This document shows, one piece after another, positions 14,133 through 61,779 of a stretch of 64,000 nucleotides of DNA. The notes under the pieces were generated by a model, which worked only from the letters and a program-made list of their open reading frames with translations, ran no database searches and had not been told where the DNA came from. Where the stretch lies: positions 41,478,001-41,542,000 of the forward strand of contig OX597824.1 of the NCBI GenBank assembly GCA_951406725.2, written 5' to 3'. How positions within the stretch are numbered: position 1 is the first letter of the stretch; the number at the start of each line of letters is the position of its first letter. The stretch is from Octopus vulgaris (Eukaryota). A program made the translations under genes and the position numbers.

Positions 14133-14402
14133 TATTTGTGCATTACGGCTCCCATTGGTTTCATGAGAAGAAAAATATCGTAATATCTTAACAATGTTTG
14201 AAGCCGATCACATGCAAGAATGATGTTCGTCTCCATTTTGGATCCAAAATGCTTTCATCCAAAATGGAGACGAACACCATTCCTCCATGTGAAAAATTGT
14301 TAAGATATGAAACTAAATCAATGGTAACCTTAATACACAAATAAAAAAAAAATTATTCACCAATTCAGTGTTGAGCACTCATTCTCATTGGTGGACATTT
14401 GC
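14133..14402 (+). mobile_element. Decayed fold-back element with tail ending in (TA)n
   Basis: Arms ~14133-14243 and ~14257-14343; 18-bp palindrome CATTTTGGATCCAAAATG at 14234-14251. Confidence 0.65.
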
Positions 14403-15637
14403 ATATATATATATATATATATATATATATATATATATATATATATATATATATATATATATACATACATATATATATGTATACTATATTAAATCTCTGA
14501 GCGATATATGTGTGTGTTTAATTGGTTGCGATTACAAAGTATCTTAAAAGACCGAAAGTTTCGTGTATGATACTTAAAAGGTATGCTCAAACCTTTCCGT
14601 CCTTGAGTCACTTTGTAAATTCTGCCGATTGGAATTGAATATCTATATAAAGCCACTGAATTTGCTTCAGAAATTCCATTGTGCCGAAGAGTCTATATAA
14701 AAAGTTACTGTACATTTACCAAAATGTATTGTTTTAGAAATAAGCGAAACGGTAAGTAAAAAACGCAGTACTCTTTTTAGAAAATAGCTTTACATATGGT
14801 AAGTTAGTTCAAACAATCTACCTAGAATTATGCATAACTGGTGCCTGTTAATGCGTCGGCGTAACAGCAACTGTGGTGCACGCGTGTGTGTGTGTGCGAG
14901 TCTGTGTGTGCACAGGTGGACTGAAGTCAAGTGAAAGAAGAATGTGAATCATGTTGTTTCTCTGGTTTATGTGAAAAAAAATATGTATATACTTATAGAC
15001 ACGTGCGTACACATGAAAACACACATGTACATGTACGTACGCAAACACATGAAGAATATGTTTACGAGAATATGGTTGCCATTTCTAGCAGTTCGCTGGA
15101 CTGGTAGAAGTTCTCTCACCAGGAAACAAACGAGAAACATAAAATGTGCGTCATTCATATGTATATATATTATATGTATGTATACATGTATGAATATATA
15201 TTTAAGTCTAACATAAACATACATATATGTGTGTGTATGTATATATATACATATATATATATATGTATATAATGAGTATATACTTATAGACACATATACG
15301 TGGGTGTGAGGGCGCGCATGTGTAGGTATGGACATGTGCGCTTACGCGAATACTATGAACATTTTTATTCCCTTACCTTTACTCCCTCCCCTCACTTAGC
15401 GGTCATTCTAATGGCTCTTCTGTCTTAATAACGGTCAATCACACAGTAATTTCCCTTTGTTTAACGGTCATTTTCATAGCATTTTTTCAGATGGCCCGAT
15501 AACTGAAGAGATGCCGGCGTGGGTTTCCGCCCCAACATCCAAAACTCGGAGTTTATCATGGCTACCGAATAAACGTCACATATTAATTATATATATATAT
15601 ATATATATATATATATATATATATATATATATATATA

Positions 15638-16247
15638 TATACAATTAAGGGCTCCTAAATTAAGATGCCGAGTGCTGGGAACACAAAAAGGGGATGAATT
15701 TATCGAGAGTGAAAATCAAAAACGTTTACCGATAATTTTAACAACTCGTACCGCGGTTTCTGCTTCTTTCTAGCAAAACATAGAATATGTTTGCTAATTT
15801 TACGAATAAATCCGGATTTATTCGTAAAATTCTTCCCGGCATGCCCTATACTGCCGCGTAAGTTTTGCGTCTGCGCAGAGATTTGAAAAGTTAAGATCTG
15901 CTAGTAGTCGGATTCAACACATGGTCCCACATCGCTGCAGACCTCGATTAAATTTAGGCGACTCGCTGATGAAGCTAGCCTTAGCAAACATATTCTATGT
16001 TTTGCTAGAAAGAAGCAGAAACCGCGGTACGAGTTGTTAAAATTATCGGTAAACGTTTTTGATTTTCACTCTCGATAAATTCATCCCCTTTTTGTGTTCC
16101 CAGCACTCGGCATCTTAATTTAGGAGCCCTTAATTGTATAACTACATGAATAATATTTTTCTATATGAATAATATTTTTGTCTTATGACTAATTCGTCTT
16201 TTGTGCTGGGCACCTGGTAGTAAATAATATTACTACCCTTCTTGTTT
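15638..16247 (+). mobile_element. PLE-like fold-back element: 160-bp inverted arms (15638-15797, 15981-16140), spacer and 3' tail, in (TA)n
   Basis: Arms are reverse complements by inspection; 36-bp palindrome at 15796-15831; (TA)n flanks. Confidence 0.88.
15958..16037 (+). ncRNA. Type I hammerhead ribozyme with extended stem II
   Basis: stem I GCGACTCG/CGAGTTGT; CTGATGA 15966-15972; stem II GCT..TAGCAAACATA/TATGTTTTGCTA..AGC; GAAA 16018-16021; palindromic stem III ACCGCGGT; GTA site. Confidence 0.82.
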
Positions 16248-16312
16248 ATATATATATTTATATATATATATATATATATATATATATATATATATATATA
16301 TATATATACATA

Positions 16313-16682
16313 TACAAAATTAAAAATGAGGGTGAAAAATTGAATATTAATTTGATAACATCAATTTAACACCAGTGGTCTAGAATATTAAAAAACTGAG
16401 GTTCAGTAAATAGTATTACATACTTATAAGAGGGAAAACCACTATATGGACCCCCTAATGCTAGAAGTAGATCTGTTATAGTCTTACCACTAAGAATTGT
16501 TCTCTAGGAAATTTAGCAGACACTAGAAACGTAAGATCTATATTTTTGTTACTTTTCATTTATCTTGCGCACTTACGTTTCTAGTGTCTGCTAAATTTCC
16601 TAGCGAACAATTCTGAGTGGTAAGACTATAGCAGATCTACTTCTAGCATTAGGGCGTCCACATAGTGGTAATCCCTCTTATA
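16313..16682 (-). mobile_element. Fold-back element with ~110-bp diverged arms (~16423-16534, ~16572-16682) and tail, in (TA)n
   Basis: Inverted repeat with several mismatches; terminal hairpin motif at 16329-16385. Confidence 0.72.
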
Positions 16683-59100: not shown

Positions 59101-60836
59101 TCACCACCACACTGTTTGTTTTCACTGTCCTATTTGTGTTACCAATTTTGACCTTCCGCAAAATCTCAAATTTTACTTAATTTGTTTTGCGGAAGCAACT
59201 GTTTTATCGAAAGCGTATCTTGTTATTAAATGCTTGAAATACGAGAGTAGAAAAACAGCCAACAACTGATGAAGGGTCGTTTTTTGTGTTGTTTGTCTTG
59301 TTTTCCATTTGTGTCTTTCGTTGTTCGAAAAAATAGTTCATATTCCATGTACTCGTACTTTGTATTTTTTGTTGTACACATTTCGTGACGTCCTATGCCC
59401 ACATATGCATATATATATATATATATATATATATATATATATATATATATATGCACGGATAGATGTAAGTATGTACATATACGTATGTATATATGCATGC
59501 ATATATATTATATATATATATATATATAAACACACACACACACATATATAATATATATATTTCTTGTTTTTCAGGATTAAATCAAATGAAGACAACAGAC
59601 GGAAAATATAACATACCTATATATAATTTTAAATAACGTGTAGTAAATAAACAAACGAATATATACTAAATACACAGGCGAACAGAAAAGACAGAGGCTC
59701 ACTAACTCTGCATCAGTTAACGGCCAGACGGTCAAACGCAATTTTGGCCACTATCGATAATATCGTTTCCTCCAGAGTGGAAGCAAGGAACTTCGCGGGA
59801 ATGGGACCAAAACGAGACCGTTATGTGGACGGACGAGGGACAAAACAGAAAACAGAATAAAGGCTTAGGGCCAGACGAAGGCATCAATTATTATTATTAT
59901 TATTATTATTAATAATAATAATAATAATAATAATAATAATAATAATATTAGTAATAATAATAATAATAATAATAATAATAATAATAATAATAATAACAAT
60001 AGTAGTAGTAGTAATAATAATAATAATAATAATAATAATAGTAGTAGTAGTAGTAGCAATAATGATAATAATAATAATAATAATAATAATAATAATAATA
60101 ATAATAATAATAATAATAATAATAATAATAATAATACAAAAAAGCCTTGGACCTGGATGACCAGACAAAATTGGGTAACGCGATACTATGTATATATAGT
60201 ATATGCACATATAAATGTGTGTGTGTGTAGCATTTCGATCATACTGTTATCTTTTATCTTTTCCATGTTGCAGTCATTAAACTTGGGCCATAACAGGACA
60301 CCGCTTTGAAGGTTTTTAGCCGATCGAATCGCCATCAGTACATTTTGTTGAAAGCTTGCTACTTATTCTACGGTTCTCTTTTGCAGAAGCGGTAAATGAC
60401 GGACGTAGACGTAAACAAATGCATCGGCATTCAAGCAGTGGTGCTAGAGAGATATAAACACAAGTACATACAGACATCATATATAAATATATGTATATGT
60501 ATGTTTATATATATATATATATATATATATATATACATATGTATATACATATATGTATGTATATATGTATGTATGTATGTATGTATGTATGTATGTTTGT
60601 ATGTATGTATGTATATATATATATATATATATATATATATATATATATATATATATATATATATATATATATATATATATATATTCTGTTTAAGTAATTG
60701 AGATTCAAGTGAATTCTAATGAATTCACATGAATATGGTCCTTAACTAGGATGCACCGGAAATCTATATGGTGTTAACCATACGACAAGTGGGGTGATTA
60801 CAAATAGGAAAAAAGCAACAAGAATGGATTAAAATA

Positions 60837-60920
60837 TCGGTACAATTGTTTCGTACGAGGACATCTTTAATAAGCTACAAAAAATGCAGTAAATATAGAT
60901 GGCTCGTACTCGTCAGCCGA
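60837..60920 (-). ncRNA. Type I hammerhead ribozyme (mirror copy, perfect palindromic stem III ACAATTGT)
   Basis: Reverse complement of 61171-61254; reads TCGG-CTGACGA-GTACGAG...CTCGTAC-GAAA-CAATTG-TA-CCGA. Confidence 0.88.
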
Positions 60921-61170
60921 AAAAACATCAGAGATTCCCAAACATCAAAAGGGGTAGATACAAATGAGGGTGTAAGTTTAACTGCATTGAAGAAAGTTCG
61001 ATTCCTGGAGATCCGATGAAAGGTCTTGAACTTACAGAATTTGTGCACAAATTCTGTAAGTTCAAGACCTTTCATCGGATCTCCAGGAATCGAACTTTCT
61101 TCAATGCAGTTAAACTTACACCCTCATTTGTATCTACCCCTTTTGATGTTTGGGAATCTCTGATGTTTTT

Positions 61171-61254
61171 TCGGCTGACGAGTACGAGCCATCTATATTT
61201 ACTGCATTTTTTGTAGCTTATTAAGGATGTCCTCGTACGAAATAATTGTACCGA
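61171..61254 (+). ncRNA. Type I hammerhead ribozyme
   Basis: stem I TCGG/CCGA; CTGACGA 61175-61181; stem II GTACGAG/CTCGTAC; GAAA 61239-61242; stem III TAATTG; GTA cleavage triplet 61248-61250. Confidence 0.85.
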
Positions 61255-61779
61255 TATTTTAATCCATTCTTGTTGCTTTTTTCCTATATATATATATATA
61301 TATATATATATATATATATATATACATACATATTTATCTATATATTTCTTTCTTTCTTTCTTTCTATCTATCTATCTATCTATCTATCTATCTATATATA
61401 TATATATATATATATATATATATATATATATATAAATACATACATATCTATATCTTTCTTTCTTTCTTTCTATCTATCTATCTATCTATCTATCTATCTA
61501 TCTATCTATCTATCTATATATATATATATATATATATATATATATATATATATATATATATATATATATATATATATATATATATATATATATATATATA
61601 TATATATATATATATATATATATATATATATATATAAATATATACATACATACATATATGAGAAGATATTGAGATTCAGTTGAATTAGGTAAGTTGAAGC
61701 ACTAAGTTAGTCCGGTATTATCCGCACAGCTCGAAGTAAGGTGAATAAAATCAAAGCAAGCAACAACTGGTGGCGCATG

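Follow-up and report, generated by a model that had tools for sequence, protein, structure and literature searches.

Six inverted fold-backs in a stretch of 64,000 nucleotides (nt) from Octopus vulgaris (positions 41478001-41542000 of contig OX597824.1 in a 2.8-Gb assembly, hereafter the window) are the 5'-truncated, head-to-head joined 3' ends of larger, high-copy parent elements. It is probable that they are insertions, likely made by Penelope-type reverse transcriptase (RT)-endonucleases at TA-rich targets, and that one non-coding parent carries a predicted self-cleaving hammerhead ribozyme with its blocks in the order site strand, GAAA, CUGANGA. The fold-back architecture is already known Penelope biology; what is new is a putative permuted hammerhead superfamily together with an apparent cleavage footprint, both of which have strong support in the sequence. 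RNA in non-circularly permuted form was reported in 2023 from environmental sequence and is regarded as rare (PMC10085705), and we found the scrambled order reported only outside animal genomes, while thousands of copies are predicted here in an animal genome. Such a diversified animal family would offer hundreds of natural variants for work on folding and structure. A further consequence would be that an animal ribozyme class escapes searches with type I to III descriptors; Rfam is without a match here. Families are named below after the first position of their element in the window.

Full copies of the 27626 family carry the three hammerhead blocks as site strand, GAAA and CUGANGA, the non-circular permutation called type SGC, an order which the original prediction had overlooked. 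A genome search that demands only GAAA before CUGANGAAGG and leaves the site strand free gives 6,379 matches (3198+3181), compared with 20 (6+14) for the reversed control. Of 94 such motifs taken from 36 Mb at the start of contig C1, 66 extend upstream as far as is needed; 53 of the 66 possess a strand able to pair with stem I as well as stem III, while the site block is present in none of the 80 metagenome chance matches that were analysed out of 120 listed loci. Rfam, applied to the motif in locus L093, returns four chance matches and no ribozyme. The L230 subfamily's motif is also covered in two other organisms, by a single 125-nt contig in X17 and a single 868-nt contig in X20. The window itself holds the GAAA block (G12 at 27938) and a CUGAUGA block (C3 at 27968) at 27935..27979 (+), two of the three blocks, since the sense arm of this copy begins 11 nt 3' of the predicted cut and the site block is thereby lost. 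A complete if diverged type-SGC motif lies at 59213..59277 (+), with an AUC site, a predicted cut after 59219, G12 at 59236 and C3 at 59266; it belongs to another TA-ended element, absent from the six first noted, which has a relative in L102 with double changes in stems I and III.

Stems I and III co-vary across subfamilies. In an alignment of 59 copies made from sequence only, 92.5% of cells are paired and 9 of 16 pairs have changes on both sides, and none of 500 shuffles reaches the observed percentage paired, number of double-change cells or covariation score; partners slid out of register, as a control, are 39-55% paired. On a tree built from the flanks alone (45 copies, two of them mis-registered), double changes coincide at least 22 times across 10 pairs, or 2.7 double changes per variable pair compared with 1.3 for non-partners. 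A copy's own partner strand also fits better than that of another group, in 49/51 copies for stem III, 46/51 for stem I and 48/51 for a distal helix that extends stem III. The core letters are kept along with the stems: among 58 copies position 17 is never G but always one of C, U and A, and GAAA is retained in 33 of 39 long copies that were found without requiring it (three could not be anchored). The link from stem I to stem II has 1-7 unpaired nt in 40/40 complete motifs among the 51 copies, and a motif resembling loop E is partly seen, with AGUA in 32/51 and an unreliable count for its partner. The motif has an additional A after A9, which is a tolerated variant of the hammerhead.

Other ways of reading these blocks were tried and rejected. 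A type I fold of the block at 27968 with a downstream GUA has no GAAA in place, and its downstream partner does not vary together with stem I across subfamilies. Type II was discarded, as were the remaining block orders, with one locus for GSC, one for SCG and none for CSG or GCS, none of them in the 27626 family. Relatedness dominated the outcome of an unguided mutual-information scan: of 196 pairs above 0.5, 12 are at least 90% pairable and some of these are non-partners.

Several observations weigh against a working ribozyme of this form. On pair-count and type-count measures the shuffles match the observed values in 43/500 and 499/500 cases, and the copies are related, so that cell counts overstate the number of events. 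GAAA together with a full site block occurs in only 23 of the 39 long copies of the independent sample. Stem II is weak, with 3-4 base pairs in the register that takes in the additional A, one C-G pair at each end and two G.U pairs, and an alternative register of the same letters would disrupt the core; the search pattern fixes stem II, which has single-side changes only. The helix known from published type-SGC ribozymes to join stems I and II is without covariation, the copy's own pairing being better in 21/51. About 70% of the copies extend past the predicted cut, and most truncations end at least 5-10 nt after it, several of them at a TA that gives microhomology to the target.

The truncated copies nevertheless point to cleavage. 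The predicted cut lies 13-15 nt before G12, and 27 of 94 SGC copies (two by internal deletion) have their 5' end 4-16 nt before G12, compared with 2/67, 4/65 and 5/61 in the successive next windows of 13 nt. In an independent sample, anchored on the CUGANGA block and made up of 56 motifs from 54 loci after exclusion of two fetched loci, 14/54 5' ends fall within the 25 nt 3' of the cut, compared with 2/56 downstream and 2/40 upstream. A similar excess exists at the type I hammerhead of the 15642 family, where the 26 nt that follow the cut contain 10 of 27 listed ends (p 9e-5). All these counts include ends at TA microhomology, taken without correction. Truncations are scarce where the enzyme would first enter the structure (3/86 pooled), which counts against polymerase stalling, as stalling would be expected at that very place. 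A 5' end set by hammerhead cleavage is likely for some of the templates, which would leave truncations just 3' of the cut; the pile-up itself is observed, and cleavage is its likely cause.

These data bear on the opposite explanation, by which the SGC arrangement would be either a structure conserved in the RNA or a relic, dead and non-cleaving, for example an RT binding site, with the pile-up arising from stalling or TA microhomology. The weak stem II with its alternative register, a distal helix that would obstruct the fold of a single molecule and the many copies that pass the site would all suit such a relic, as would the published in vitro work, in which insertion is independent of cleavage and, in the part of the paper drawn on here, RNA reads do not end at the site (PMC11167929). 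By contrast, a relic would hardly keep its core letters across subfamilies with differing stems (GAAA in 33/39, position 17 never G), nor does it account for truncations that are rare at structure entry and fall off sharply just past the predicted cut, with an equivalent footprint at the type I hammerhead of 15642. We consider this explanation improbable. The step in 5' truncation at two different hammerheads offers a genomic read-out, applicable to any assembly, for asking whether these ribozymes cut in vivo.

Partial cleavage may have its reason in the distal helix. In each of the 36 motifs where the co-varying extension of stem III is strong, 0-4 nt separate its end from the 3' strand of stem I, so that one molecule could hardly form both. 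Single-molecule folding would thus be blocked by the extension, and cleavage would likely need refolding or a CUGANGA strand supplied by another RNA or a neighbouring tandem unit, a need which would account for partial cleavage. On balance we lean towards a working type-SGC hammerhead in more than 6,000 copies and many subfamilies of Penelope-mobilised retrozymes, the first in animal chromosomes, which would be held off in a single transcript, would cut with a CUGANGA strand from a second RNA or neighbouring unit and would mark the 5' ends of insertions by its cut.

Published type-SGC ribozymes (HRIMA-1 and variants; PMC10085705) share with the octopus motif the order of site, GAAA and CUGANGA, two core pseudoknots, a stem I-stem II link of small length and stems I and III that co-vary. 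They came from metatranscriptome contigs and from RefSeq and metagenome searches, whereas the motif described here sits in thousands of chromosomal retroelement copies and differs in the additional A after A9, in the distal extension of stem III and in having no co-varying helix between stems I and II. The main text and one supplement of that paper name no octopus, mollusc or metazoan host, and its alignment files may bear on novelty. A search of the open literature, with subscription journals outside its range, found no other report of a type-SGC hammerhead, and no report of an SGC-order hammerhead in an animal genome was found. Hammerheads and ribozymes go unmentioned in the consulted part of a 2026 octopus repeat annotation (PMC13282606).

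The parents of the 15642, 16309 and 27626 fold-backs are retrozyme-like, non-coding tandem repeats, as judged from their sequences. Head-to-tail units have a period of 454 nt in the 15642 family (L058) and 539 nt in the 16309 family (L109). The parent of 27626 is about 0.7 kb long and non-coding; its relatives form tandems with periods of 589, 833, 837 and 839 nt without an open reading frame (ORF) between units, and in the 27626 subfamily proper only the tail-to-head junction is observed (L093, L103). Contigs of sequencing runs guessed to be RNA also span an L230-type unit and join its tail to its head, which is uninformative on cleavage or circles as tandem DNA would give the same contigs. 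In one such run (X9) a loose contig end at L230:2087, on the strand opposite the ribozyme, resembles a template-switch adapter. A search of 288 sequences with ten Penelope proteins found no RT or endonuclease match in the loci of 15642, 16309 or the SGC family. This counts against the SGC repeats being pseudo-long terminal repeats (pseudo-LTRs) of a further autonomous Penelope-like element instead of free-standing retrozymes, as do the direct head-to-tail units of 589-839 nt with no intervening ORF. Such an origin would fit the targets, tails and inverted arms, in which the SGC repeats match the autonomous families, and the scan covered flanks of mostly 0.4-1.5 kb with query proteins from one Penelope group; overall it seems unlikely. 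The non-coding families would likely be mobilised by an enzyme of Penelope type. Parents in L126-L147, L093 and L230 hold long internal tracts of TA, TG and TATG-like repeats, so that moving elements would spread microsatellite-like DNA and new targets.

The hairpins themselves most likely arise at integration. Copies of each element were sampled as the best 40 scored of 1,075-2,342 candidates (2185 for 60685, 1075 for 15642, 2229 for 27626, 2342 for 16309, 1098 for 41724 and, at first look, 1722 for 14133), a choice that biases the samples to close copies. After removal of ten overlapping duplicate loci and with the window copies kept, 49 of 111 loci over five families are fold-backs (13/26, 11/21, 12/21, 8/21 and 5/22; 14133 was assessed by eye only), and the fold junction is distinct in 48 of the 49. 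The outer ends are fixed: in the 60685 family one arm runs to the end of the tail and the other is 111-121 nt shorter in 11/13 fold-backs, and in the 41724 family one arm is 65-69 nt shorter in 5/5. The main idea of the original prediction was a propagating hairpin family, to be refuted by breakpoints unique to each copy, and the distinct junctions are of that kind. Copying of whole fold-backs as an independent non-autonomous family is accordingly very improbable, even though in 4 of 26 loci from the 60685 family the fold points are no more than about 15 nt apart and L092 and L093, on different contigs, have a junction in common, the one conceivable instance of copying of a composite unit and a point against origin at integration. 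The parents extend far past every fold point, and four look-alike hairpins are from different subfamilies and are closer within copies (arms 98-99.6% alike) than between them (90-98%), as well as being enriched by a query with the entire hairpin.

For hairpins formed at integration, published work on Penelope-like elements offers a route. These elements leave an inverted 5'-truncated copy with a tail and are biased to TA targets (PMC8557442), and two internal start sites for RT, with both target strands cut and extended, account for the tail (PMC11167929). In the octopus, parent RNAs would come from autonomous elements or from tandem non-coding retrozymes, both of which are observed as DNA. 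The enzyme would then nick both target strands and start complementary DNA at two fixed internal positions, leaving one arm longer than the other by the tail, in line with the fixed ends observed here (mechanism as in PMC11167929). Two unfinished complementary DNAs would finally be joined at variable points into a hairpin, which is consistent with the variable junctions. As to the two origins first proposed, retrozyme-like elements or products of 5' truncation, each holds for different parents, three being non-coding tandems and three coding for Penelope-like proteins. The phrase "self-cleaving hairpin RNAs" finds no support, for the predicted ribozyme sits in single-stranded parent RNA.

All six fold-backs that had been claimed are present, each with two inverted arms and an unpaired tail on one side, and arm identity ranges from 74 to 100%. 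The fold-back at 14133..14402 (+) is the old 3' end of a GIY-YIG-coding Penelope-like element, with arms 14133-14243 and 14250-14345 that are 74% alike and a tail at 14346-14402. At 15642..16246 (+) lies the retrozyme-like fold-back of the 454-nt repeat; its antisense arm is 15642-15797 and its sense arm 15814-16246, of which 15981-16136 pairs with the former at 100% identity. The minus-strand element at 16309..16690 derives from the repeat of about 540 nt and has its tail at 16309-16416, followed by arms 16417-16535 and 16572-16690. The fold-back of the type-SGC superfamily occupies 27626..28281 (+), with the antisense arm at 27626-27930, the sense arm at 27935-28245 and the tail at 28246-28281. 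The 3' end of a young Penelope-like family folds back at 41724..42453 (+; arms 41724-41981 and 42123-42384, tail 42385-42453), and the pseudo-LTR of an autonomous Penelope-like element forms a perfect fold-back at 60685..61287 (-; tail 60685-60803, arms 60804-61045 and 61046-61287, 99% alike). The tails measure about 57, 110, 108, 36, 69 and 119 nt, in this order. The primary sequences are unrelated as stated, each family reference matching its own element alone save for one related SGC subfamily that matches 27626. Two flanks depart from the (TA)n described: to the left of 14133 lies (TACA)n/(CA)n, and the sequence on the right of 16309 starts with (TATG)n. The spacer is not short or zero throughout, as it reaches 183 nt in 15642 and about 141 nt in 41724.

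The 60685 family has an autonomous parent, and copies continue through a long stretch of non-coding sequence to a GIY-YIG endonuclease (L020). A search with this endonuclease piece finds ORFs as long as 1091 codons, among them an intact one of 1071 amino acids in L200 with RT plus a GIY-YIG domain at its C-terminus; it has the motifs FDI, GSS, YRDD, FLD, YVG and CQLC. The 60685 unit ends 58 nt upstream of the ATG of this ORF and is found after the stop in L201, L031, L032, L035 and others, and it is a pseudo-LTR. Relatives of the protein are 35-43% identical, and Pfam assigns no family to the ORF. A cluster of four cysteines precedes the endonuclease (residue 931) with a spacing other than the exact CX2-5CxxC linker of the Neptune clade. 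Between RT and endonuclease this ORF (L200:3669-6884, minus strand) also contains a long run rich in asparagine, and its 1071 amino acids compare with about 700 in its relatives. In the 41724 family, copies of which are 99-100% alike among the best 40 of 1098, RT or endonuclease pieces lie 5' of the unit on the opposite strand in 3 of 22 loci (L129, L140, L141). The 14133 copies are older, 70-88% alike at best among 40 of 1722, and in one locus only (L466) an endonuclease piece lies upstream of the sense arm, at a distance of about 360 nt (E 1e-12); the L200 protein alone misses this piece at E 1e-3 and the proteins of its relatives match it. Hammerheads are present in the units of 60685 and 41724, and none was seen for the 14133 family.

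Type I hammerheads are predicted in three window elements, as had been claimed, with only that of 60685 being canonical. A strict descriptor finds 60916(-) and 61175(+) alone, two loci compared with a mean of 0.075 and a maximum of 1 in 40 shuffles. A relaxed descriptor, tolerant of an additional A or of U.U or A.A mismatched at the stem II base, finds six loci (mean 0.03, maximum 1 in 30 shuffles), gaining 15966(+), 41783(-) and 42323(+), every one with a GUA site, and a weak alternative fold at 59266. The predicted hammerhead of 60685 at 60837..60920 (-) has a palindromic stem III and a GUA cut after 60841, with a second copy at 61171-61254 (+). In 15642 the predicted motif at 15957..16038 (+) has an A.A mismatch at the base of stem II, a palindromic stem III and a cut after 16029; its site is GUA here and GUU in 40 of 42 motifs of the family. 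The palindromic stems III of these two presumably hint at dimer cleavage. The predicted hammerhead of 41724 at 42317..42367 (+) has U.U at the base of stem II and a GUA cut after 42361, and its mirror lies on the minus strand (C3 41783, cut 41745). The window copies of 14133 and 16309 carry no hammerhead; a type I motif of the 16309 family, recognised by eye and with U.U at the base of stem II, sits past the fold point of the copy in the window. Rfam at the gathering score gives no match across the whole window, the top of its ranking by E-value is dominated by matches of microsatellites to microRNA models, and the Hammerhead_1 model reaches 16.1 bits (E 0.22) at 60835-60922, below its cut-off of 34.

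Endonuclease-bearing Penelope-like elements (Neptune and Poseidon; PMC8557442, PMC11167929), as far as these sources were drawn on, resemble the octopus elements in their partial tandems, inverted 5'-truncated copy and one-sided tail, in a pseudo-LTR hammerhead, in (TA)n or AT-rich targets and in a single ORF of RT and C-terminal GIY-YIG. They differ in their tails, which are 30-40 bp as published compared with 36-119 nt here. Non-LTR retrozymes (PMC7229834; bioRxiv 10.64898/2026.07.22.740005), within the portions of these reports consulted, are likewise non-coding head-to-tail units with one hammerhead each that are presumed to be moved by Penelope-like enzymes, and their axolotl motif is described with U.U at the base of helix II, as here. 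Their units are 150-450 nt long, unlike the 454-840 nt found here (454 nt is borderline, the others being 540-840), and they carry type I hammerheads, which in the octopus occur in 15642 (42 motifs) and 16309 (by eye), with SGC in one superfamily. Penelope-style tails and inverted arms, observed directly here, go beyond what those reports describe.

The window as a whole has 37% GC and abundant TA and TATG microsatellites. Decayed RT or GIY-YIG pieces of other Penelope-like elements lie at 24253-24885 (+), 45560-45957 (-), 50001-50234 (-) and 50972-51133 (+). A 230-codon frame at about 41000-41350 (in L127) resembles the C-terminal zinc-finger/nuclease end of a non-LTR retrotransposon. CUGANGA cores with incomplete hammerhead-like surroundings at 15503, 18642 and 57184 (+) are probably decayed ends of other families. 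A further near-perfect inverted repeat (97%) with a TACA/TA/TATG microsatellite in its centre spans 49302-49655, and older or smaller fold-backs, several of which adjoin simple repeats, are found at 9534-9853, 13068-14129, 13364-13741, 26711-26807 and 51797-51850.

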